The notes under the pieces are model-generated. The model saw only the letters and a program-made list of their open reading frames with translations. It did no database searches and had not been told where the DNA came from. The position numbers and the translations under genes are program-made. From contig JAUXRW010000048.1 in NCBI GenBank assembly GCA_030681555.1, forward strand, positions 1-62,257: a DNA stretch of 62,257 nt. The letters run 5' to 3'. Of the stretch, positions 51,667 to 62,257 are shown in pieces. Source of the DNA: Acidimicrobiales bacterium (GTDB lineage Bacteria > Actinomycetota > Acidimicrobiia > Acidimicrobiales > VFJN01). Positions within the stretch are counted from its first letter, which is position 1; each line of letters starts with the position of its first letter.

Positions 51667-51670
<4 letters not shown>

Positions 51671-52716
51671 CTCGAGGACTCGTCGTCCTCGTAGCGGTAG
51701 CGGAACGGGAAGCGGCTCCGGCCTGCGGCCCGTGGCGGCGGAGGAGCGGGCAACACGTCTGGGTCGGGCCCTTCGTCGGACGCCACCTCGCCGGCGTTGT
51801 CGGGAGCGTCGCCGGGGTGGGACAAGAACGAGAAAGCCCTCGTGCGAGCGCCGGTCTCCTCGTCCTCGGCGGGGAGCACGTCGCCGGACGGGTCAAGCTC
51901 CGCGTCCTGCACCGAGACGTCCTGCGGCGCCCACGGCAACGGCTCGATCTCCTCTTCTGGCGCCTCGTCGTGCGCGCCGGCCGCGGGGAGATCCGCTGGT
52001 CCGACCGACGGCTCCGGCTCGTCGAGCAGGAGCTCGTCTGCGAGCCCAGTCGCCTGGGCGGGGTCCGGCTCTGTTCCGGCCTCGTCAGCCTCTGCGGCGC
52101 TGCCGTCGTCGGTGGCTGCGCCGGGGGCCTCGCCAGCCGGCGCCGCAGGGGCGTCCTCGCCGGCTGCCGTGGCCGCTTCGGCACCGGGCGCCTCGTCATC
52201 GGGGCTGATCGCTGCTTCCTCCTCGAGGCCCTCGGTGCCGGTGCCCCCGAGGCTGCCCTCCGCTGCGGCGTCCTCGGGCTGGCTCTGCGTGGCCACGGGA
52301 CGGATGGCCTGCGTTCCGGCGGCCGGCACCACGTAGAGGGTGAGCGCCCGGACCAGCTCGTCGTCGAGGTAGAGGCGCACCTGGTGCGTGCCCCAGGTGC
52401 GGGCCCGCACGCCGGTGATGGACAGCACGAGCGGCACCTGCTGCACCTCGTGGGGGAACAGGCCCTCGTCGCTCACCCTGAAGAGGTTCTGCAGCTCCGC
52501 CAGCACCGTGCCGTGTCGGTTGATCACCTCGGCCCGCAGCGTGTGCTCCATGCCCGCGTCTTCCAGCGGGACCTCGATGACCAGGCCGACCATGAGGCCG
52601 AGGGGCGACGGCAGCTCCTGTCGGTAGAGCCGGGAGACGGCGCCCGACGAGCAGAAGAGCAGGCGGTCGCGCACCTGTGCGAAGTCGCAGAGCACGGCGG
52701 TGCTTAGGTCGAGCAT
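51667..52716 (-). CDS. Hypothetical protein: ~130-aa beta-rich domain plus long acidic disordered tail
   Basis: N-terminal LCDFAQVRD..LF domain (DUF6941-like); Glu/Asp/Ala/Pro tail. Confidence 0.7.
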
Positions 52717-52813: not shown

Positions 52814-54613
52814 TCAGGGCGCTGCCGCCATCGCGGTGGGATCGTGGTCGGCCCGCCAGCCTACGGCGGGGGGCGCGGTCCATCCGAACTCCCGGCCGAG
52901 AACAGCGGCGATCGGCGCCGCCTCGCCCGCATCGAGGAGCGGCGCCAGCTCGTCGACGACGTGCTCGGCGATCGGCAGGGCGCTGCCCGGGAGGGCCAGG
53001 GGCCCCTCGCGCACCGCCGCCAGCACGAGCTCTGCCCGGGCGACCTTGGCGGCGGACGGCCCGTCGAGCACGAGCTCGGCCCCGCCCGCACGGTCGCGCA
53101 CCGCGCGGCCGCCCTGCACGACGTCCCAGATGCGATGTCGTGCGCCGCGCCAGACCTCGGCCAGCTGCAGCTCGTCGTCCGGCAGCAGGTGGCGCCGTTG
53201 GTCGACGAACCGGTCGAACACGCCGCCCTCGGCCAGGCAGAGCTCGGTGACCGCCGGATCGCATGCAGCCGCGATCACGCGCGCGGGCGCGTCCTCTGGA
53301 GCGTGCACGCCGGCGTGGGCGACGGCGACGGCGAAGAGGACGGCGCGCTGTGGCGGGCGCTGCAGGAACATCACGGCCTTCGCGTGCAGCCACGGCGCAC
53401 GGGAGGCGAGGTCGTGCCCGTTGAGGCGGAGGCAGCACTGCTTGTGCTTGCGGCCCGACCCGCACCAGCAGGGCTCGTTGCGCCCGACCAGGCGCGGCCC
53501 ACTGGCCGTGTAGCGAGCCAGCAGCTGGGCGTCGGGATCGTCGTTCGGCACGTGCGCAGCGCGGAGCAAGGCCGACGCCTCGCGGGCGTCCCCGCGATCC
53601 GACGCGAACCACGCGGCGTCCACGAGGGCCGCCGGAACCTGGCCGCTGCGCGTGGCATGGGCGAGGGCCGAGGCGTGGTCGGCGGGATCGCCCCGCCACT
53701 CGGCGAGGCGGAGGTGGAGGAAGGCCAGTCCCGGATTGCTGTCGTCGCCCACGGCGGCGCGCAGGCGGCCCAGGAGCAGTTCGAGCCGGTCGGGGTCGAC
53801 CAGCTCGCCTCCCACCACCTGCTCGGCCAGCGCAGAGACGGCGCCCGGATCGTGGAGCGCAGCCAGCACCTCGGTCTCGACGGGAGCCGCTGGGTCCGTG
53901 GTGAGGACGGCACCGAGGAGGCGCTCGGCGGCAAGCGACGATTCGAGCCCGAGGCCCGGGACGCCGACCGCTTCTTCCGCCTTCGCCGCCGGGCGGACAT
54001 CGGCTCGGTGGACGGTGGTGCCGTCGACATCGAGCCCGGACGCGTGCAGGAGGTCGCGAATCGGTGCCGGCGTGGTGCCGAAGAGCCCAGGCTGGTCGAT
54101 CAGCAGGTGCAGCAGGAGGTCCAGCAGGGGGACGGGGTGACCGCCGCCGATCCGCTGGAAGGTGGCGGTCATCGCAGCGGCGTCGACGGGGGTGTGGACC
54201 ACCGGTGCATCCCAACGGACGAGGAGGTCGCTCCCGGCGACGCTCAGGAGCACGGTGCCCCCGGCCGGCGCCCCGTCGAGCCAACCGTCAGGGCCCCGGA
54301 GTACGAGCCGTGGCGCGCCGCGCTGGCCCACCTCACCCGCGTCGAGCCTGGCCACCCGGACCTCGCCGCCCGAGCTGAGGGTGTAGTGGTGGGAGAACGC
54401 CGCGACCGGCGCGAAGTCGGGGACGACATCGAGCCACCCGGAGACGAGCTCGGCCTGGGTCACCCGGTGGGCGAACCACCGGTCCTGGACGAGACGGTCG
54501 TTGACCACCATCTGGCGGCCGGGTGCCAGCCACGCGCCGGCGGTGATCTCGTCCATCGACGCCAGGTCGAGCGGATCCCCCGAGGGCTCGGGCGTCAGGT
54601 CGGCCTCCGTCAT
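52814..54613 (-). CDS. SEC-C motif domain protein
   Basis: Internal GRNEPCWCGSGRKHKQCC. Confidence 0.85.
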   Translation of the reverse strand: MTEADLTPEPSGDPLDLASMDEITAGAWLAPGRQMVVNDRLVQDRWFAHRVTQAELVSGWLDVVPDFAPVAAFSHHYTLSSGGEVRVARLDAGEVGQRGAPRLVLRGPDGWLDGAPAGGTVLLSVAGSDLLVRWDAPVVHTPVDAAAMTATFQRIGGGHPVPLLDLLLHLLIDQPGLFGTTPAPIRDLLHASGLDVDGTTVHRADVRPAAKAEEAVGVPGLGLESSLAAERLLGAVLTTDPAAPVETEVLAALHDPGAVSALAEQVVGGELVDPDRLELLLGRLRAAVGDDSNPGLAFLHLRLAEWRGDPADHASALAHATRSGQVPAALVDAAWFASDRGDAREASALLRAAHVPNDDPDAQLLARYTASGPRLVGRNEPCWCGSGRKHKQCCLRLNGHDLASRAPWLHAKAVMFLQRPPQRAVLFAVAVAHAGVHAPEDAPARVIAAACDPAVTELCLAEGGVFDRFVDQRRHLLPDDELQLAEVWRGARHRIWDVVQGGRAVRDRAGGAELVLDGPSAAKVARAELVLAAVREGPLALPGSALPIAEHVVDELAPLLDAGEAAPIAAVLGREFGWTAPPAVGWRADHDPTAMAAAP

Positions 54614-56436
54614 TCGACGACGGGAGGGGGCTGCGTGGTCGGAGGCGGCGGGGGCTGCGTGGTCGGAGGTGGCGGCGGGGGCTGCGTGGTCGGAGGCGGC
54701 GGGGGAGCCGTGGTGCTCGGGGCGCGGGTGGTGGCCGTCGCCCGTCGGACGGTCGTCGTGGTGCGACGCGCGACCGTTGTGCTCGTGCGCCGCCGTGCCG
54801 TGGTGTCGGTCACGGCCTCGCCCGTGGTGGTCTCGACCGGCACGACCGCCTCGGTCACCGGCACGGCCGCGGTCGTGGTGTCGGAGGTGCTGCGGGTGCG
54901 GCGGATCGTCGTGGAGGTCGAGCTCGTCGTCTCGTCCTCCGACGCCACGAGGCTCGGACGCTCGGAATCGTCGATGAGCTGCGTGCCGAGGCCGATCAGC
55001 CCGAGCACGCCGGCGGCCAGGCCCAGCGCCACGAGCGCGCGACGACCGCGCCGGCGGCGCTTGGGCGCCGGGTCTAGCCCGCTGGCGTCGTCGTCCTCGA
55101 CGCCCTCGCCGAGGTGGTGGCCGTCCACCGGTGCGGCGGCGGCGGTCGCCGCACCGGCTGCCGTGCCTGCACCCGCCGCCGCAGCGGCGCCGTACATACG
55201 AGCGTCGGCGACGGCGGCGGCGCGTCGCGGCCGGTGTGCATCGAGCTCTGGCTCCGCGAGGGCTCCCTGCACCGGGCCGAAGACGGACGCGTAGTCGAGG
55301 CTCGAGACGTCGATGGAGGCGCCGGCGCCGTCCGCCATCACATCCTCGGGGCCGAGCGGGAACGACGAGTCGATCAGGAGCGCATCCTCCATCTGCTCGT
55401 CGAGCTCCGCCTCCAGCTCGGCCTCGACCTGGTCGGGCTCCGCCTCGTGGCGGAAGGAGGTGAGCGCGGGTGCCGGCCCTGGCCCGACGATCTCGCCGCC
55501 GGTGCCCCGACCCCAGAGGTCGACGTCGACGGGGGCCATCGTGGCCCCCGCCGCGCCGTCGGCGTCCGGGTCGTCGGGCGTGGGGACGTCCGTCGTGGCC
55601 CGTTCGGCCGCGATGCGCAGGCCGTCGCCGGGCGGAACGGCGATGCCCGTCTGGGCGGTGGCGCCCACGAGGCCCGCAGCGGCGGCACCGCCGACGACGG
55701 CGACCGGACCCGTCAACGCTTCGTCCTGCTCGTCGCCGTGCTCCTCGTCCTGTGCATCGGCGCGGGCCGCCAGATCCTCTGCGAAGCGATCACCGGCGGC
55801 AGGGGCCTCCGCAGCGCCGTCCGACTCGTCGTCGGACTGATCGAGCACCGCGTCCGGAGGGGCCATGTGGCGGGGCCGCACGGTGGCGTCGATGCGCTCG
55901 AAGGCGGCTGCGTCGTCGGTGGGGGCTGCCCGCTCCGGCGGCTCCTCGTAGGCGACCTCGGGCACCACCCCCGGCTTCGGGACCGCCGCGGGTGCGGGCG
56001 GGGGGCTCCCGGCGCCGATATCGCGGGCAAGATCGTCGAACCCGTCGTCCTCCAGGAGCGGAGGCACGACCGCCGCACCGACCCGACGGCGGGGTGGCTG
56101 GGCCAGCGCGGGCGGGCTGAACGCGTCGACGGAGAGGCCGGCGACGTCCTCGGCGTCGTGGTCGGTCTCCAAGGCGCGTGCCACATCTCGCTCGTCGAGC
56201 GACGGGAGGCTGAGGTTCGTCCCTGTCTGCACCGGGCGACCGGCTCGCTGGCGGGCGATGCGCAGGGCAGTCGCGTCGTCGACGGCGTCGTTCTCCACCA
56301 CGACGACGTCCCAGTCGGCGGGGTTCTCGAGGTCCTCCACCGACACGAGGATGCGCGGCGGCCGAGAGACGGACCCCGTCGCCACAGGGGCCGTGGGCCG
56401 CTCGGGCTCGGTGGGCTCGGGGGGTTCCGGGGTCAT
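54610..56436 (-). CDS. Low-complexity single-pass membrane protein (acidic cytoplasmic part, Thr/Pro-rich exterior)
   Basis: KRRRRGRR then TM, followed by a Thr-rich and PPPPTTQ tail. Start uncertain (56436-56610). Confidence 0.65.
   Translation of the reverse strand: MTPEPPEPTEPERPTAPVATGSVSRPPRILVSVEDLENPADWDVVVVENDAVDDATALRIARQRAGRPVQTGTNLSLPSLDERDVARALETDHDAEDVAGLSVDAFSPPALAQPPRRRVGAAVVPPLLEDDGFDDLARDIGAGSPPPAPAAVPKPGVVPEVAYEEPPERAAPTDDAAAFERIDATVRPRHMAPPDAVLDQSDDESDGAAEAPAAGDRFAEDLAARADAQDEEHGDEQDEALTGPVAVVGGAAAAGLVGATAQTGIAVPPGDGLRIAAERATTDVPTPDDPDADGAAGATMAPVDVDLWGRGTGGEIVGPGPAPALTSFRHEAEPDQVEAELEAELDEQMEDALLIDSSFPLGPEDVMADGAGASIDVSSLDYASVFGPVQGALAEPELDAHRPRRAAAVADARMYGAAAAAGAGTAAGAATAAAAPVDGHHLGEGVEDDDASGLDPAPKRRRRGRRALVALGLAAGVLGLIGLGTQLIDDSERPSLVASEDETTSSTSTTIRRTRSTSDTTTAAVPVTEAVVPVETTTGEAVTDTTARRRTSTTVARRTTTTVRRATATTRAPSTTAPPPPPTTQPPPPPPTTQPPPPPTTQPPPVVE
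54626..54707. repeat. Coding tandem repeat, 3 x 24-27 bp (PPPPPTTQ)
   Basis: ggggctgcgtggtcggagg(t/c)ggc repeated three times. Confidence 0.85.
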
Positions 56437-56686
56437 GACGTGGTATCCATTCACCCACACCGGTCCGGTGGGTGCAACATCGTCGGGCGGTCGCGCGGCG
56501 ACCATGCCCGTGGTTGCGGGTTTGACTGCCCGGGGAGCGCGGGGCATGCTTCTGCCTGGCTTGTGAAGTGTGCCCCACCCGCGGGCGACGACGAAGTACG
56601 ATCCCCCCACGTTGGTTTCCGGGTGGAACGCCAGCGACCGATCTATTTAGGCGGGCACCGACCCGCGATGAGCTCCTGGAGGAGAC

Positions 56687-59600
56687 TTGACCTACAGCAC
56701 CGGCGACGATCTGGACCGGACGACGAGCGGACGGTTCGTCCGCAACCTCGCCCTGTCACTTTCCGGGGGCGCACTTCTGACGCTCCTCGGAGCGTCTGCT
56801 GCACACGCGCAGGACACCTCCGGAGCAGCTGCCGCCGGGACGGATTCCGCCGGCACCGGCGCCGCCAGCACCGGCGATGCCACGGCGACCGGCAACCAGG
56901 CCAACACCAACACCACGCAGACGGTCACGGTCTCCGGCAACCTGGGCACGATCCAGGTGATCAACCAGCAGGCCAACGTCAGCAACACCGGCTCGGCCAC
57001 GGCGAACACCGGCGGCAACATCGCCATCGGCAACAGCTCCGACAACCAGGCCGAAGCTGATCAGGAGGGCGTCGGCTCCGGCATCGCCTCCAACACCGGC
57101 ACGGCATCCAACGGCAGCAACGGCACCGCCAGCATCACCACGGGCAACGCCACGGCCACCGGGAACGACTCGCACACGGTCATCAACCAGACCGCCAACG
57201 GTCAGGCCCACGGCCAGCTCGGTGGCATCCTGGTGATCAACCAGCAGGCCACCGTGAACAACAGCGGTGAGGCCGACGCCAACTCCGGCGGCAACACCGC
57301 GCTCGGCAACGGCTCCGACAACGAAGGCCTGCTGTGGCAGGACGCGGAGGGCGACGGCTCGCTGGCGTCCAACGGCGGCACGGCCACCAACTCCTCCGAC
57401 GGCAAGGCGACGATCAACACCGGCGCCGCATCGGCCACCGGCAACAAGTCCCGCACCGACGTCGTCCAGCAGGCCTCCGGCTCCGCCGGCGGTGCCCTGG
57501 GCGGCCTCGTCGTCATCAACCAGAACGCCAACGTCACCAACCAGGGCACGGCCACCGCCAACTCCGGGAACAACGAGGCCGAGGGCAACGAGTCGGAGAA
57601 CGACGCCGAGCTCGACCAGGAGGCCGGCGGCCTCGGCGGCGGCGCGGCCATCGGCATTGCTGCCAACAACGGGGAGGCCTCCAACCACTCCAACGGCACC
57701 GGCGCGATCTCCACCGGCGCTGCGACGGCCATCGGCAACGACTCGGTCACCAACGTCACGCAGTCGGCCAACTCGAACATCAGCGGCCCTGGCGGGGGCG
57801 CCATCGTCACGCAGAACTCCAGCGTCCTCAACTCCGGCACGGCCGACGCCAACTCCGGTGGCAACGAGGCCGACGGGAACCGCTCCGACAACGATGCCGA
57901 CATCGACGAGCAGGAGGCCGAGGGCTCCGGTGCCCTGGCCATCGGCGTCGTCGGCAACTTCGGCCTGGCGGAGAACACCTCCGACGGCACCGGCACCGTG
58001 AGCTCAGGCCGCGCCACGGCGGTGGGCAACCGGTCCGAGACCAACGTCAACCAGAGCTCCAACGTCACGGGCGGGGCGCTCAACGTCCACACCCAGGGCA
58101 ACCTCGTCACGAACATCGGTAGCGGCACGGCCAACTCCGGTGATAACGAGGCCGAGGGCAACGAGTCCGAGAACGACGCCGACGTCGACAACCAGGACGC
58201 CGACCTCGTGCAGCCGGGTGGCGTCACCGGGGTCAACGGGCAGTTCGCCAAGGCGCACAACTCCTCCGATGGCACCGCCTCCATCACGACGGGTGATGCG
58301 ACGGCCGTCGGCAACAGCTCCGAGACCAACGTCAACCAGCACATCGACCCCGCCGGCGTCGTGGTGGCCTCGCAGGGCACGGCCGTCATCAACGCCGGCA
58401 CCGCAACCGCGAACAGCGGCGGCAACTTCGCCCTCGGCAACGCCTCCGACAACGACGCCGACGTCGACCAGGACGCCGAGGTGGCCTCTGACAACGGTGG
58501 CGCCACCAACGCAGCCCTCGTGGGGGCGCTTGTCGCCCACAACGACGGCGAGGCCTCCAACGACTCCGACGGCACGGCCACCATCGTCACCGGCGACGCC
58601 ACGGCGACCGGCAACGAGAGCCAGACCTGGGTCGACCAGCAGTCGAACGGCACCGGCGACGGCGCCGGCGTCATCGTCAACACCCAGGGCGCCCTCGTGG
58701 TGAACGCAGGGGCCGCCGCGGCCAACAGCGGCGGCAACTTCGCCTTCGGCAACCTTTCGGACAACGACGCCGACGTGGACCAGGACATGGACGTCCTCTC
58801 CGACAACGGCGGTGACGTCGTGGTCATCGCTGCCGCAGTGGTCGGCAGCAACAACGGCCGGGCCACCAACGCCTCCGACGGCACCGCCACGATCCACACC
58901 GGCGACGCCACGGCCACCGGCAACCGCAGCGCCACCGCGGTCAGCCAGCTGGCCAACGGCGACGTCGACGGCCTCGGCGGGGTCATCAACACCCAAGCCG
59001 CCGTGGTGACCAACACCGGGCTCGGCGTGGCCAACAGCGGCCTGAACCTGGCCGTCGGCAACGCGTCGGAGAACGAGGCCGATCTCGATCAGGACGTCGA
59101 GATCGCCTCCGACAACGGCGGCGACGTCTTCCTTCTCGCCTTCCCCGGCGGCGTCACCGGCACCAACTCGGGCACGGCGTCCAACGAGTCCGACGGCACC
59201 GCCGAGGTGCACACCGGCAACGCCGACGCCACGGGCAACGCGTCGGCCACGAACCTCAGCCAGGTGGCCGAGGGCTCGGTCGATGGCCTCGGGCTCGTGG
59301 TCAACACGCAGGTCGGGGGTGTGGTCAACGCCGGTCTCGGCATCGCCAACAGCGGCCTCAACGCTGCCGTCGGCAACGTCTCGGACCAGGACGGCGGCGA
59401 GGGCGCCGACCTCGACCAGGACATCGACATCGCCTCCAACAATGGCGACGACGTCGCCGTGATCGCAGCCGCCGTCACCGGGAACAACTCCGGGACGGCC
59501 AGCAACACGTCCGACGGCACGGGCATCGTCCACACGGGAGGGGCGCAGGCCCAGGGCAACGTGTCCGGCACCATCTTCGAGCAGACGGCCACCGGCTCCG

Positions 59601-60955
59601 TCGGCGAGAACGGCCTCGGCGCCGTCATCAACACGCAGGCAGGCGGCGTGGCCAACCTCGGCGCCGCCGTCGCCAACAGCGGCCTGAACCTCGCCGTCGG
59701 CAACGCCTCGGAGAACGAGGCCGACATCGACGACCAGGACGTGGAGATCGCCTCGGAGAACGGCGGCGACGTGTTCGCCCTCGTGGCCGGGCCGCTCACC
59801 GCCAACAACTCGGGTGACGCCTCCAACACGTCCGACGGCACCGCCAAGGTGAAGACGGGTGGCGCCCTTGCCACCGGCAACGCCTCGGCCACGGCCTTCG
59901 CCCAGCGTCAGAACAGCACGGTCGACGGGCTCGGCATCGTCGTCGGTACCCAGCTCGGCGGCGTCGTCAACGCCGGCGCAGCGGTCGCCAACACGGGCCT
60001 GAACCTGGCCGTCGGCAACGCTTCGGAGAACGACGCCGACATCGACGAGCAGGAAGTGGAGATCGTCACCGACAACGGTGGCGCTGGGGTCCTGTTCGTG
60101 CTCGGTCCGGTCACGGGCAACAACGCCGGCACGGCGTCCAACTCGTCCGACGGCGAGGCCTGCGTCTGCACCGGCAATGCAGTGGCCAGTGGGAACGTCT
60201 CGTCCACCACGTTCCTCCAGGACATCGACGCCTCGACGGGCGGCGGTGCGGTGGTGATCACCACGGTCGGCGGGGTCCTCAACGCCGGTGTCGGCATCGC
60301 CAACAGCGGCCTGAATGCCGCCTTCGGCAACATCTCCGACAACGACGCCGACCTCGAGCAGGATGTCGACGTCCTCGACGGCGCTTCGCTGTTCGGCGTC
60401 GGCCCGCAGACGGCCACCAACAGCGGCGAGGCCAGCAACAGCTCGACCGGCACGGGCAAGGTCGGCAGCGGCAACGCCACGGCGCGGGGCAACGTGTCGA
60501 CGACGAACTTCGCCCAGAGCGCAGTCGTCGACGGCAGCGCTGCCTTCGGCCTGATCCTTGGCACCGTGACGAACACCGGGTTCGGTCTGGCCAACAGCGG
60601 CCTGAACCTGGGGGTCGGCAACGATTCCGAGAACGACGCCGACCTGGAGCAGGAAGCCGATGGCGCCGGCACGGTGGCCAACAGCGGCGCTGCGAAGAAC
60701 GAGTCGGGCGGCTCCGGGCTGGTCGGCAACCCCGACTGCGAGGACAAGCCGGTGGTCGCCCCGCCGGTCGACGTGCCCAAGGTGGAGACCCCCGAGGCCC
60801 CCGAGGCCCCCGAGGCCCCGGCGGACCGCGCCGCAGCCCCGGGTGGAGCGTCGCTGCCCCGCACCGGTGGCCCGCTCGAGGCCCAGGCTGCCGTCGCCCT
60901 CATGCTGCTCCTCGCCGGCTTCGGCCTGCGTCGGAAGAGCGCTCAGCTCAGCTGA
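56687..60955 (+). CDS. 1422-aa sortase-anchored Asn/Gly/Ala/Ser repeat surface protein (predicted beta-solenoid)
   Basis: TTG start behind GGAGG; signal peptide ending AHA|QD; 13 copies of AN(S/T)GxNxAxGNxSxN.A..DQ; PEAPEAPEAP stalk; LPRTG at 60854-60868, then TM and RRK. Confidence 0.9.
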   Translation: MTYSTGDDLDRTTSGRFVRNLALSLSGGALLTLLGASAAHAQDTSGAAAAGTDSAGTGAASTGDATATGNQANTNTTQTVTVSGNLGTIQVINQQANVSNTGSATANTGGNIAIGNSSDNQAEADQEGVGSGIASNTGTASNGSNGTASITTGNATATGNDSHTVINQTANGQAHGQLGGILVINQQATVNNSGEADANSGGNTALGNGSDNEGLLWQDAEGDGSLASNGGTATNSSDGKATINTGAASATGNKSRTDVVQQASGSAGGALGGLVVINQNANVTNQGTATANSGNNEAEGNESENDAELDQEAGGLGGGAAIGIAANNGEASNHSNGTGAISTGAATAIGNDSVTNVTQSANSNISGPGGGAIVTQNSSVLNSGTADANSGGNEADGNRSDNDADIDEQEAEGSGALAIGVVGNFGLAENTSDGTGTVSSGRATAVGNRSETNVNQSSNVTGGALNVHTQGNLVTNIGSGTANSGDNEAEGNESENDADVDNQDADLVQPGGVTGVNGQFAKAHNSSDGTASITTGDATAVGNSSETNVNQHIDPAGVVVASQGTAVINAGTATANSGGNFALGNASDNDADVDQDAEVASDNGGATNAALVGALVAHNDGEASNDSDGTATIVTGDATATGNESQTWVDQQSNGTGDGAGVIVNTQGALVVNAGAAAANSGGNFAFGNLSDNDADVDQDMDVLSDNGGDVVVIAAAVVGSNNGRATNASDGTATIHTGDATATGNRSATAVSQLANGDVDGLGGVINTQAAVVTNTGLGVANSGLNLAVGNASENEADLDQDVEIASDNGGDVFLLAFPGGVTGTNSGTASNESDGTAEVHTGNADATGNASATNLSQVAEGSVDGLGLVVNTQVGGVVNAGLGIANSGLNAAVGNVSDQDGGEGADLDQDIDIASNNGDDVAVIAAAVTGNNSGTASNTSDGTGIVHTGGAQAQGNVSGTIFEQTATGSVGENGLGAVINTQAGGVANLGAAVANSGLNLAVGNASENEADIDDQDVEIASENGGDVFALVAGPLTANNSGDASNTSDGTAKVKTGGALATGNASATAFAQRQNSTVDGLGIVVGTQLGGVVNAGAAVANTGLNLAVGNASENDADIDEQEVEIVTDNGGAGVLFVLGPVTGNNAGTASNSSDGEACVCTGNAVASGNVSSTTFLQDIDASTGGGAVVITTVGGVLNAGVGIANSGLNAAFGNISDNDADLEQDVDVLDGASLFGVGPQTATNSGEASNSSTGTGKVGSGNATARGNVSTTNFAQSAVVDGSAAFGLILGTVTNTGFGLANSGLNLGVGNDSENDADLEQEADGAGTVANSGAAKNESGGSGLVGNPDCEDKPVVAPPVDVPKVETPEAPEAPEAPADRAAAPGGASLPRTGGPLEAQAAVALMLLLAGFGLRRKSAQLS

Positions 60956-60976
60956 CCGGGCAACCTCCAGCAGTTC

Positions 60977-61010
60977 CACGAGGGGCCCTTCGGGGCCCCT
61001 CGTGCGCGTT
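60977..61010 (+). terminator. Intrinsic terminator-like hairpin
   Basis: 12-bp perfect stem cacgaggggccc-TTCG-gggcccctcgtg followed by cgcgtttc. Confidence 0.8.
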
Positions 61011-61090
61011 TCGGATGCGGGGCGTGGGACGTCGACGGGCCGCGCGCCCGAGGCCGCAGGGTCTGCCCCGATACACGCCGAAAACAGTTC

Positions 61091-61119
61091 TTGGACATTT
61101 GCCGCAGGTTCAGTAGATT
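61091..61119 (+). promoter_or_regulatory. Housekeeping-sigma-type promoter for the second repeat gene
   Basis: TTGGAC-N17-TAGATT. Confidence 0.6.
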
Positions 61120-61205
61120 CCGAGCGCAACGTCCCGGCGAGGGCGGCACGATCGACCGGTGCCTGCTGGCCCGGTTCCCATGAACATCAGCCAGGAGACG
61201 CCAGA

Positions 61206-62257
61206 ATGCGCAACGAGACCCTCGATCAGACCCCCGCGGTGAGCCGGAGGGTTGCCCGCAACCTGCTGCTGTCCTTGACCGGTGGGGTGGCCTTGACGTT
61301 GGCCGGCCAGGCGGCGGCGCAGGCGCAGGATGCCGGCACGGATTCCACGGGCGCAGGCGCGGTCGGCACGGGTGATGCGGACGCGACGGGCAACGTTGCC
61401 CACAACGACTCGCGCCAGGGGCTGGACGGCTCGGGCAACGGAGTCACGACCCAGACCGGGACCATCAACAACTCCGGCGTCGCGGTTGCTGACACCGGCC
61501 GGAACACGGCGGTCGGCAACGAGTCGGTCAACGGGGCCGCCGGCGTGCAGACCGCGGACGGGGGCACGGGCCTCGCCAACAACTCGGGCGAGGCCAGCAA
61601 CGCCTCCGACGGCTCGGCGTTCGTCACCACGGGTGATGCGACGGCAGTCGGCTCGGAGTCGACGAACACGCTGACCCAGTCGGGCACGCTCGCGGGCGGG
61701 TTCCTGGTGCTCTTGCAGGACGGCACGATCACCAACTCCGGGCTCGGGGTGGCCACGACCGGCGGGAACGACGCGGTGGGAAACACGTCCACCAACGGCG
61801 CAGGCGTGCTCCAGAACGCGTTGGCTCCGAACGGCCTGGCCAACAACGCCGGCACGGCCGCCAACACCTCGGGTGGGGCTGCCGTCATCGCCACGGGCAA
61901 GGCGGAGGCAGTCGGCAACCGCGGCGTCTCGAGTGTGCAGCAGATTGCCGGAGGCAGCGACGGTGGCGCGTTCGGAGGTCTGGTCCTGATCGACCAGACG
62001 GCGGACGTCACCAACGAGGGTGAGGCCAGGGCGAGCACGGGCGACAACACCGCCATCGGCAACGATTCGCTGAACGTTGCCTTCCTCGACCAGGACGCCA
62101 TCACCCCCGCCGCGGCAGCGCCGGTGGCGGTGGTGAACCCGGCCGCCGCCGGTCTGGGCGGTGCCCTCGTTGGGGCCCCCGGCGCCGGCTTCGGCGGACT
62201 CGGCGGTGCCGGCGGAGCCGGCGGTGCCGCGCTCCCCGGAGGGCCGGGCGCGCCCGG
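61206..62257 (+). CDS. Paralogous secreted repeat protein (partial, runs off the window; absent from the ORF track)
   Basis: RBS AGGAG; MRNETLDQTPAVSRRVARNLLLSLTGGVALTLAGQAAAQA|QD; the same TGDAxAxGN / NSGEASNASDG / TGxNxAVGNxS repeats; frame open to the window end. Confidence 0.85.
   Translation, partial: MRNETLDQTPAVSRRVARNLLLSLTGGVALTLAGQAAAQAQDAGTDSTGAGAVGTGDADATGNVAHNDSRQGLDGSGNGVTTQTGTINNSGVAVADTGRNTAVGNESVNGAAGVQTADGGTGLANNSGEASNASDGSAFVTTGDATAVGSESTNTLTQSGTLAGGFLVLLQDGTITNSGLGVATTGGNDAVGNTSTNGAGVLQNALAPNGLANNAGTAANTSGGAAVIATGKAEAVGNRGVSSVQQIAGGSDGGAFGGLVLIDQTADVTNEGEARASTGDNTAIGNDSLNVAFLDQDAITPAAAAPVAVVNPAAAGLGGALVGAPGAGFGGLGGAGGAGGAALPGGPGAP

Follow-up and report, generated by a model that had tools for sequence, protein, structure and literature searches.

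Sortase-anchored, strongly acidic repeat proteins of uncultured Acidimicrobiia as candidate amyloid-like β-solenoids

What kind of surface structure could be built by an exported bacterial protein that consists almost entirely of long repeats rich in glycine, alanine and asparagine? This question is raised by positions 56687–62257 of a 62,257-nt stretch of DNA (the window), which is the entire contig C56 (JAUXRW010000048.1) of a 3.28-Mb, 162-contig genome (GCA_030681555.1) that is 98% complete with ~70% G+C. The host is an uncultured groundwater Acidimicrobiia-type actinobacterium, a monoderm; a search of sequencing runs recovered the full stretch from a single run, a groundwater metagenome that is its probable source. 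Gene 1 of this region encodes a 1422-residue protein (P1) and gene 2, which is cut by the contig end, encodes its paralogue P2; an unanchored paralogue (P3) lies elsewhere in the genome. A preliminary description had proposed that the two genes represent a new β-solenoid or functional-amyloid surface system. Our analysis indicates that P1 is very probably a secreted, sortase-anchored, ordered β-solenoid repeat protein of a new family. For the fuller reading, in which such proteins form sortase-tethered, strongly acidic, amyloid-like solenoid blocks that are possibly extended by the unanchored paralogue, we consider the case to be evenly balanced.

Genes, repeats, and export and sorting signals were read from the sequence itself. 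A profile built from the protein’s own repeats finds 13 units in P1, each scoring 82–125 bits (residues 45–132, 133–224, 227–325, 325–420, 422–516, 517–610, 616–715, 719–815, 824–927, 931–1032, 1038–1141, 1143–1240, and 1242–1328). The units are 87–107 residues long, in agreement with the 13 repeats of about 90–100 residues counted in the preliminary description; pairwise identity is 34–66%, with neighbors being most alike, and Tandem Repeats Finder reports periods of 309 and 315 nt at 58412–60154. The four strand–turn motifs that had been proposed match the consensus of 1996 repeat matches in 248 family proteins (a.N.g.a.N.SdG.A.i.TG.A.A.GN.S.T...Q......g.G.....Q.a.V.N.G.a.ANsG.N.A.GN.S.N.a...Q). 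Across these matches, 22 Asn, Gly, Ala, Ser, Thr or Gln columns are kept at 75–94%, and the conserved residues of the consensus fall on alternate positions. P1 is composed of 16.3% Gly, 15.5% Ala, 11.3% Asn, 9.3% Thr, 8.9% Ser, 9% Val, and 7% Asp. Its strong acidity and its scarcity of basic and aromatic residues, both noted previously, are borne out by counts of 161 Asp and Glu, 25 Lys and Arg, and 22 Phe, Trp and Tyr in 1422 residues; the mature protein has 157 acidic versus 19 basic residues.

The strands of the repeat differ in their faces. The fourth carries F.F.N.S.N.A.V.Q on one face and the almost purely acidic D.D.D.D.D on the other, in strands 1 and 2 a conserved face is opposed to a polar or charged one, and strand 3 has two small or apolar faces. 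Thr-x-Thr occupies the outer face of strand 2 in P1 repeats 1–7. The halves of the repeat align weakly but reproducibly with each other (SdGsA.I.TG.A.A.GN.S.T versus N.G.a.ANTG.N.AvGN.S.N), and half-against-half comparison with hhalign gives the same register within P1 (E 1.3e-3) and over 400 family repeats (E 1.2e-3); they look like the two products of an old duplication. The hydrophobic inserts that had been noticed in later repeats (VFLLAFPGG, VLFVLGP and similar ones), and for which lateral packing had been suggested, occur in repeats 5–11. All of them lengthen a single link, that between strand 4 of one repeat and strand 1 of the next, and they are modeled with low confidence.

P1 has the features of an LPXTG substrate. 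In addition to an N-terminal signal peptide, it carries the PEAP stalk (PEAPEAPEAP, residues 1369–1378) and LPRTG anchor (1390–1394) recognized in the preliminary description, followed by 20 hydrophobic residues (1395–1414) and the tail RRKSAQLS. C-terminal sorting signals are present in 160 of the 248 retrieved family proteins (LPxTG in 114, LAxTG in 32). The Pfam and NCBIfam anchor models have no match to P1 at E ≤ 1; two of 22 diverse relatives scanned match PF00746 weakly. Sortases and further paralogues, which it had been suggested to look for beyond the window, are both found in the source genome: five sortase-domain (PF04203) matches, all above the cut-off, are located on contigs C52, C162, C55, C122, and C130, with none on the window contig C56, and P3 is located on contig C81. 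By pattern scan, sorting signals of the LPxT[GAS] type are present in 14 frames of the genome, a few of which are probably chance matches; P1 and a frame on contig C62, described below, are the largest. Toward the wall, C.C[TS]G occurs in 56 of the 161 relatives that carry L[PA]xTG, and 51 of those 56 also have a P..C motif. The corresponding CVC/NPDC cysteine triad of P1 may be a C-terminal cap or a disulfide, as judged from its sequence.

The signal peptide itself is unusually conserved. The family motif R..RNL.LSL.GG..LTL.G...A.AQD is found in P1 (56687–56809), in P2 (61206–61340), and on the orthologues P0022 and P0145, and within the source genome it is confined to family genes. P3 has the form typical of a short subfamily, KRAAQ.AAFTVGGGVAL.FA.AG.ASAD (L024 6130–6232, minus strand). 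Such conservation may point to a route of export or placement reserved for the family, comparable to that marked by YSIRK signals in cocci. Export through the twin-arginine (Tat) pathway was considered and rejected: an RR pair is present in P2 and P3, but P1 reads GRFVRN.

The paralogue that the preliminary description had seen behind P1, with a shared repeat and signal peptide, is P2. It starts at 61206, is 47–48% identical to the P1 N-terminus and, after the signal peptide and three contiguous repeats (residues 38–303, nt 61317–62114), enters a Gly-rich GGAGGAG spacer and runs off the contig at 62257. Contig C62 (L025 3–4493) opens inside a like frame, which contains eight repeats and ends in NPDC, a Pro stalk, and LPRTG. 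The first six of these repeats are separated by spacers of 123–126 residues, 31–51% Gly and 19–29% Ala (GGAGGAGFGGFGG...). This frame is probably the remainder of P2. The spacer region covers window positions 62115–62257 and L025 3–4493; since the contig ends within the first spacer, the repeats were probably the cause of the break in assembly. Gly/Ala-rich spacers of this type recall the PGRS regions of mycobacteria.

P3, of 381 residues, has three full repeats between two half-repeats and lacks a sorting signal. Searching with P3 gave 145 matches at E ≤ 1e-10 in the range of 209–667 residues, 55 of which are 372–387 residues long. An anchor-like motif is present in two of these 55 short relatives, and the conserved signal peptide is common to the subfamily. 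The last repeat of the short proteins, itself conserved, diverges from the internal ones (Q[VI]SFGLLASN..NWSDGF..LTGDATGIGN.S.T.VKQ). Judged by locus-tag prefix, P0047 and P0275 are a long and a short member from one other metagenome-assembled genome (MAG). The gene for P3 is distant from those for P1 and P2 and is surrounded by phytoene synthase- and desaturase-like carotenoid genes and by genes for a metallophosphoesterase and a DMFA2_C protein.

To what family, then, do these proteins belong? The preliminary statement that the repeat matches no known consensus held in all comparisons: P1 and P2 have no Pfam or NCBIfam family at E ≤ 1, the C62 frame likewise matches nothing in Pfam, and the repeat profile has no match at E ≤ 10 among all PDB chains. 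Pfam searches of 22 diverse relatives returned only the two weak LPXTG-anchor matches and one doubtful Ldh_1_C match. Look-alikes in the ESM Atlas (best score 0.88) are clusters without a name and gave no lead, and a literature search for β-solenoid or LPXTG repeats in Actinobacteria and for Acidimicrobiia sortase surface proteins, judged from listings and abstracts, found no description of the family. On these sequence comparisons, the repeat family of P1 and P2 is previously undescribed, and none of its relatives is characterized. More than 300 database proteins of the family are labeled ‘hypothetical’ or mislabeled. Labels of the relatives P0018, P0053, and P0259 include ‘filamentous hemagglutinin’, ‘S-layer family protein’, and ‘autotransporter family porin’, none of which is supported by any profile search here.

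A profile search for relatives, also proposed at the outset, showed a conserved family of few members. A word-indexed search found 123 relatives of 782–2489 residues at E ≤ 1e-3, among which those of 1397–1449 residues are 47–64% identical over 99–100% of P1. An exhaustive HMMER search of 1.84 billion cluster representatives with a four-repeat query returned 280 representatives at E ≤ 1e-3, 159 at E ≤ 1e-10, and 66 at E ≤ 1e-30; the repeat is present in all 248 retrieved proteins, with 1996 matches in all. Apart from one that is labeled Chloroflexi, the relatives with a named source come from MAGs of Actinomycetota, Acidimicrobiales or Microthrixaceae. Their distribution is patchy: the family is found in 16 of 401 sampled genomes of the class (the source genome included) and in 5 of 401 sampled across the phylum. 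Several contigs carry two to four long paralogues, judged partly from adjacent locus tags. In one genome of the same order (G243), family frames reach 2390 and 4228 residues on contigs C18 and C5; thus, repeat number varies several-fold between lineages.

Fold, register, and self-stacking were approached by prediction. With a 50-row alignment, AlphaFold2 (AF2) modeled P1 residues 420–830 as all-β, with a predicted local distance difference test score (pLDDT) of 70.5 and a predicted template modeling score (pTM) of 0.57. Each repeat forms four strands of 18–21 residues, with turns at TG, G.G, and NSGG and an acidic link after them. Whole P3 (37 rows) was also modeled as all-β, with a pLDDT of 84.5 and a pTM of 0.73; it has 16 strands of 17–20 residues that recur with a period of 88–89 residues, and ten-residue blocks from residue 41 onward score 73–98. 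Structure prediction, suggested in the preliminary description as a check, therefore returned an ordered all-β fold for both proteins.

We then compared the models with known structures. In Foldseek, FapC is the top row for both, with E values of 0.44 for the P1 piece and 4.9e-3 for P3; for P3, P. korlensis CsgA is second (E 7.8e-3 at a template modeling (TM) score of 0.05), followed by assorted β-helices. In VIA, the best row for P3 is the CsgA fibril 8enq_A, in which 88 of 111 residues align at a root-mean-square deviation (rmsd) of 7.3 Å with Z 8.7, just above the Z of 7–8 that is typical for models without a true match. Other P3 rows include SufB/SufD-type helices (Z 6.1–7.0; 115 residues of 1vh4_A at rmsd 2.2), the flat antifreeze solenoids of Rhagium (Z 6.4) and springtail (Z 6.1), repeats-in-toxin (RTX) β-rolls (Z 4.0–5.5), P. 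korlensis CsgA (8c50_A, Z 5.2), and FapC (Z 4.3, rmsd 13.8). The P1 piece gives the same kinds of rows at Z ≤ 6.1. All of these rows are weak, and they appear to share an architecture with the models, that of a parallel solenoid or roll, and not ancestry.

These results bear on whether the repeats fold at all. P1 could instead be a disordered, low-complexity hydrophilic brush, with the solenoid a model artefact of repetitive sequence; its composition is dominated by Gly, Ala, Asn, Thr, and Ser, and four of the five AF2 models of the P1 piece have a pLDDT of 56–63. However, conservation is strictly position-specific with a two-residue periodicity across 1996 repeats, P3 scores a pLDDT of 84.5 in AF2 and 92–94 in ESMFold2, the short subfamily keeps a conserved length of 377–384 residues, and the conserved cysteine pairs of one orthologue, described below, sit at structurally matched positions. 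We therefore regard a brush as very improbable. A role at the surface in ice binding or as an antifreeze, through ordered Thr, Ser, and Asn on a flat side of the solenoid, is hardly credible. Although the Rhagium (Z 6.4) and springtail (Z 6.1) antifreeze proteins (AFPs) are among the structural rows and strand 2 of repeats 1–7 bears Thr-x-Thr on its outer face, these matches are weak, later repeats and the family consensus do not keep the Thr columns, no cold-specific distribution is shown, and the exterior is highly acidic. Ice-binding faces are not known to be so.

How the strands are stacked was addressed by folding two copies of mature P3 together in ESMFold2, in three runs with three controls. 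The interface score ipSAE was 0.80, 0.87, and 0.87 versus 0.00 for the best control, with 365–374 contacts, a partner pLDDT of 92–93, and at least 97% contact agreement between runs; P3 itself scored a pLDDT of 92–94. In calibration, the ipSAE mark was reached by 20 of 30 homo-pair and 1 of 23 single-chain proteins, counts that are approximate with a custom alignment. The interface is head-to-tail, with residues 297–381 of one copy on 35–120 of the other, and all 25 best residue pairs, first- and fourth-strand pairs included, are offset by 264–266 residues, which equals three repeats. Every strand thus lies on its counterpart in the following repeat, and a rung should be made up of one whole repeat. 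The same follows from the RTX alignment, in which 76 contiguous RTX residues, or about four coils, align at rmsd 2.0 across P3 residues 41–381. The repeat is thus predicted to be a single 4.8 Å rung of four strands, parallel and in register. The four strand–turn units of the preliminary description persist as four strands per repeat, but not as separate solenoid turns, because all four would lie in one rung. If one repeat is one rung, the P2 spacers would have to loop out between consecutive rungs.

Three other arrangements were rejected on the basis of sequence and contact lists. Two solenoid turns per repeat do not agree with two-copy contacts that pair identical strands three repeats apart, or with RTX and SufD alignments that cover four repeats in about four coils. 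A four-layer serpentine would bury both sides of strand 4, whose almost purely acidic face cannot be buried. A ring with sharp ends at the NSGG and TG turns does not fit the cysteine pairs of P0141, an orthologue of the short paralogue, which need strands 4 and 1 to face each other. P0141 has three such pairs within residues ~60–290 (..GGC.Q.A.G..ANNSC..), one in each of three consecutive repeats and always at the corresponding position, where the source-genome paralogue has one Thr and one Ala; they resemble staples across one turn and provide a useful distance restraint. As each pair sits on the conserved faces of strands 4 and 1, 6.5 residues to each side of the two-residue link between them, the two strands should lie face to face. 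In the simplest cross-section, the half-repeats would form the two sides of a ring that is wide, thin, and pseudo-two-fold in symmetry.

Based on these findings, we propose a plausible route from gene to surface structure. P1 and P2 would leave the cytoplasm through Sec and be retained at the membrane by the sorting signal, after which a sortase would transfer them to peptidoglycan and link them covalently via LPRTG; this is the established pathway for such signals. Each repeat of 87–107 residues would then form one rung of a parallel, in-register cross-β solenoid with tight Gly/Asn turns (TG-, -G.G-, NSGG), in which the near-invariant Asn, Gln, Gly, Ala, Ser, and Thr columns would form ladders on the inner faces and the Asp/Glu-rich faces would point outward. 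An old half-repeat duplication would give the ring a curli-like pseudo-symmetry between its two sides. The 13 rungs of P1 would make up a block that measures ~6 nm in the direction of the hydrogen bonds and stands away from the wall on its Pro-rich stalk, with its free N-terminal edge open. Open rung edges would allow blocks to stack head-to-tail and, together with the passed self-stacking test, they suggest extension by in-register stacking. P3, which is unanchored and of conserved length, would be a likely added stacking subunit. The inferred outcome would be an anchored, hydrated, cation-binding acidic surface layer or fiber with a role in matrix building, cohesion or attachment. On the evidence of these models, polymerization of P1-family proteins is a tentative proposal, somewhat short of even chances.

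Polymerization has a serious competitor, namely that P1 and P2 fold as predicted and serve as single, capped, monomeric wall-anchored adhesins or spacers, like other β-helical adhesins, with P3 a separate soluble or wall-associated protein. This reading draws on the same AF2 and VIA evidence for the fold. The wall-proximal cysteine triad and the divergent aromatic terminal repeat of P3 resemble end caps, two genomes of the same order (G255 and G243) yielded no short paralogue, and no assembly genes stand beside the family genes. In contrast, the two-copy fold of P3 passes strongly, head-to-tail and in register (0.87 versus 0.00). If a repeat is a rung, a four-rung slab would moreover expose two strand edges of ~88 residues each, which should be hard to keep monomeric. 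Finally, no adhesive or tip domain was detected by Pfam in P1, P2 or 22 diverse relatives, so that P1 and P2 have no recognizable adhesive domain besides the repeats and differ in this respect from fibrillar adhesins, which pair a stalk with an adhesive tip. Weighing these points, we consider a capped monomer somewhat unlikely, while treating it as the main alternative.

A further possibility is that the acidic surface is itself the function, with Ca2+, Mg2+, other metals or minerals bound by the Asp/Glu stripes (GN.SDNDADVDQD) and Gly/Asp loops, perhaps with an RTX-like Ca-dependent fold. Such a cation-binding coat is compatible with either a polymer or a monomer. The excess of 157 acidic over 19 basic residues in mature P1, the almost purely Asp/Glu face of strand 4, the RTX β-rolls among the structural rows (Z 4.0–5.5), and the groundwater origin of the metagenome are in its favor. 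However, Pfam finds no RTX (GGxGxD) or other Ca-binding family at E ≤ 1, the RTX rows are weak, and acidity alone is common in surface proteins; as the principal explanation, it is improbable.

Several observations weigh against the proposed solenoid blocks and their stacking. All structural results are predictions, with the cross-section and rung register read from contact lists and alignment ranges. Four of the AF2 models of the P1 piece stay at a pLDDT of 56–63, Foldseek returns nothing at E ≤ 1e-3 for either model (TM ≤ 0.16), and the best VIA score barely clears the level typical of models without a true match. Predictors tend to lay β-solenoid ends together, and the passed two-copy test supports binding without showing it. 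The conserved CxC and NPDC at the wall end of P1 and the divergent aromatic last repeat of the short paralogue are possible stacking-blocking caps, and the net charge of mature P1, about −138, opposes self-association unless counter-ions are present. The P3 query detected no short paralogue in G255 and G243, two genomes of the same order that do have long members, and a two-component system was for this reason rejected as a family-wide feature. The family was found in neither of two same-genus genomes searched, nor in the one genome searched elsewhere in the same family; it is therefore an accessory trait, or those assemblies dropped it. No assembly genes were seen among the inspected neighbors of P1, P2 or P3, and no RNA dataset is among the sequencing runs listed for the stretch. 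Of the preliminary proposal of a β-solenoid or functional-amyloid system, then, the ordered, parallel solenoid-like fold, the CsgA and FapC rows, and the self-stacking result speak for it at the level of prediction, while the structural matches remain weak (Foldseek E > 1e-3; VIA Z ≤ 8.7 at rmsd 7.3 Å). The results that would count most heavily against it are a known Pfam family and a disordered or non-polymerizing repeat; we found instead no curated family, a predicted ordered fold, and a passed stacking test.

Comparison with known systems clarifies what would be shared and what would be new. According to the part of PMC10192328 that deals with repeat structure, the curli repeat is 23 ± 5 residues long and consists of two N-x-psi-x-psi-x-Q motifs joined by X-G-X-X arcs. 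On the same account of curli (PMC10192328), CsgA/CsgB and the P1 family are both secreted tandem repeats in which fixed Asn/Gln and alternate small residues face the core, in the P1 family by prediction. The predicted P1-family fold is also like the curli of PMC10192328 in Gly-containing arcs, pseudo-symmetric rung halves, predicted head-to-tail stacking, and a 4.8 Å rise. The P1-family rung, in contrast, is predicted at 87–107 residues with strands of 17–21 residues, compared with 23 ± 5 residues and 7-residue motifs in the same curli account, and only its strand ends (GN.S.T...Q, GN.S.N.a...Q) recall the curli motif. P1 would moreover be anchored by sortase and not by CsgB/CsgF, would join 13 rungs covalently, is strongly acidic, and belongs to a monoderm host. 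A six-frame search of the source genome gave no match to Curlin_rpt (PF07012) at E ≤ 0.1, with an E. coli control matching, and CsgG (PF03783) likewise has no match at E ≤ 0.1 in this 98% complete genome. Similar to what is predicted for the P1 family, FapC of Pseudomonas is a repeat-built cross-β solenoid with rungs larger than those of curli; its fold matches to P1 and P3 are, however, non-significant, and no PDB chain matches in sequence. By prediction, the P1 family would work like a curli-type functional amyloid without a sequence tie to curli or Fap.

In layout, the closest likeness is to the chaplins of Streptomyces, in which long anchored forms (ChpA–C) and short free forms (ChpD–H) share one repeat, as do the anchored long and unanchored short paralogues of this actinobacterium. 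P1 and the C62 frame end in LPRTG whereas P3 has no sorting signal; the likeness is one of layout only. The passage of PMC5618241 concerned with assembly states that short chaplins are thought to co-assemble with the anchored long forms. The unanchored P3 makes a chaplin-like idea of ‘anchored plus free subunit’ concrete. P1-family repeats nonetheless differ from the hydrophobic chaplins in being hydrophilic and acidic and in having units of 90–100 instead of ~55 residues, and the short form is not found in all genomes with long forms. The chaplin domain (PF03777) has no match in P1 or P2, nor any in a six-frame search of the source genome at E ≤ 0.1. Rhagium AFP and RTX β-rolls resemble the predicted P1-family fold as wide, thin, parallel solenoids with Gly-rich turns. 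The inner faces of both are made of Gly, Ala, Ser, and Thr. They are much smaller, with other repeat lengths, and neither ice binding nor Ca-dependent toxin or enzyme folding is implied for P1, in which, as in P2, Pfam finds no RTX GGxGxD family (HemolysinCabind) at E ≤ 1.

At its most extended, the model describes a functional amyloid that monoderm Acidimicrobiia would template through sortase and that would have the widest rung known among functional amyloids, encoded as blocks whose rungs are covalently stacked in advance. P1 would be the fixed template, P3 would add in register at its free N-terminal edge, and blocks of neighboring cells might do so too, yielding an acidic cross-β coat or fiber without curli- or Fap-type secretion machinery. 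Rungs of disease amyloids are comparable in size to a layer of 87–107 residues. This extended version, which rests on the predicted models, is doubtful in our judgment.

The organization of the locus is summarized in Table 1. About 76 bp, with GGAGGAG in the gap, separate gene 1 from a divergent minus-strand gene that starts at 56610. Downstream of gene 1, the 56-nt stretch containing the hairpin folds at −36.8 kcal/mol (z −4.08), with none of 200 shuffles folding as well; its U tract (GUUUC) is weak. The promoter match at 61092–61119 is the single sigma-70-like site within 56300–62257 (shuffle mean 0.1), and AGGAG precedes the P2 ATG. Together, the hairpin, the sigma-70-like site, and AGGAG fit separate transcription units and the promoter of its own that the preliminary description had assigned to P2. 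Upstream of P1 (49554–56610) lies a conserved neighborhood that includes amtB with a PII gene, a gene for a 238-residue secreted-looking protein, and DUF6941. In a Microthrixaceae MAG (L011), the amtB, 238-residue, DUF6941, SEC-C, and Pro-rich genes recur in the same order beside a family member, and four of these five recur in an Acidimicrobiales MAG (L006), amtB not among them. Since the upstream genes keep their order beside a family member, the P1 locus is orthologous in both. Dedicated assembly genes were rejected: the neighbors of P1 are the Pro-rich, SEC-C-motif, DUF6941, and amtB genes, and those of P3 are the carotenoid, phosphoesterase, and DMFA2_C genes.

Table 1 Coordinates of the P1/P2 locus and of the unanchored paralogue; positions are those of the window unless a contig is named.
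Feature	Position	Strand	Basis or remark
DUF6941 protein	51667–52716	−	upstream neighborhood of P1
599-residue SEC-C-motif protein	52814–54613	−	upstream neighborhood of P1
666-residue Pro/Thr/Ala-rich protein ending in PPPPPTTQ repeats	54610–56610	−	divergent from P1
Shine-Dalgarno-like GGAGGAG	56673–56683	+	sequence reading; directly before the TTG start of gene 1
Gene 1 (P1), putative 1422-residue secreted, sortase-anchored repeat protein	56687–60955	+	open reading frame and translation; TTG start, TGA stop
Signal peptide, residues 1–41 (...RFVRNLALSLSGGALLTLLGASAAHA, then QD)	56687–56809	+	basic n-region, hydrophobic h-region, AHA-QD site; putative cleavage site
13-repeat array, residues 45–1328	56819–60670	+	repeat-profile envelopes, repeat alignment, AF2 of residues 420–830
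CVC, penultimate repeat	60161–60169	+	coordinates from sequence
NPDC	60728–60739	+	sequence; with CVC, conserved Cys triad at wall-proximal end
Pro-rich stalk (KPVVAPPVDVPKVETPEAPEAPEAP...)	60746–60853	+	sequence
Cell-wall sorting signal: LPRTG, 20-residue hydrophobic stretch, RRKSAQLS tail	60854–60952	+	sequence
Terminator-like perfect 12-bp GC hairpin, TTCG loop	60977–61004	+	22 nt past gene 1 stop
Sigma-70-like promoter match, TGGACA / 16 nt / TAGATT	61092–61119	+	upstream of gene 2; consensus match only
Gene 2 (P2), 5′ part	61206–62257	+	ATG start; contig end cuts gene
P3, unanchored 381-residue paralogue	contig C81 9086–10231 (L024 5087–6232)	−	complete frame, signal peptide

Stacked-repeat functional amyloids are well understood only for curli and Fap of Gram-negative bacteria, whose rungs comprise ~20–40 residues. 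The P1 family is predicted to use the same principle with rungs that are four times larger, covalently joined, and fixed by sortase, and it is found almost only in uncultured Acidimicrobiia; it deserves a curated profile. If the proposed reading is true, these proteins would widen the known design space of natural cross-β materials and provide an example of nucleation that is built in through an anchored template. They would also open a first approach to the cell surface of a lineage that is abundant in soil and groundwater but poorly known.

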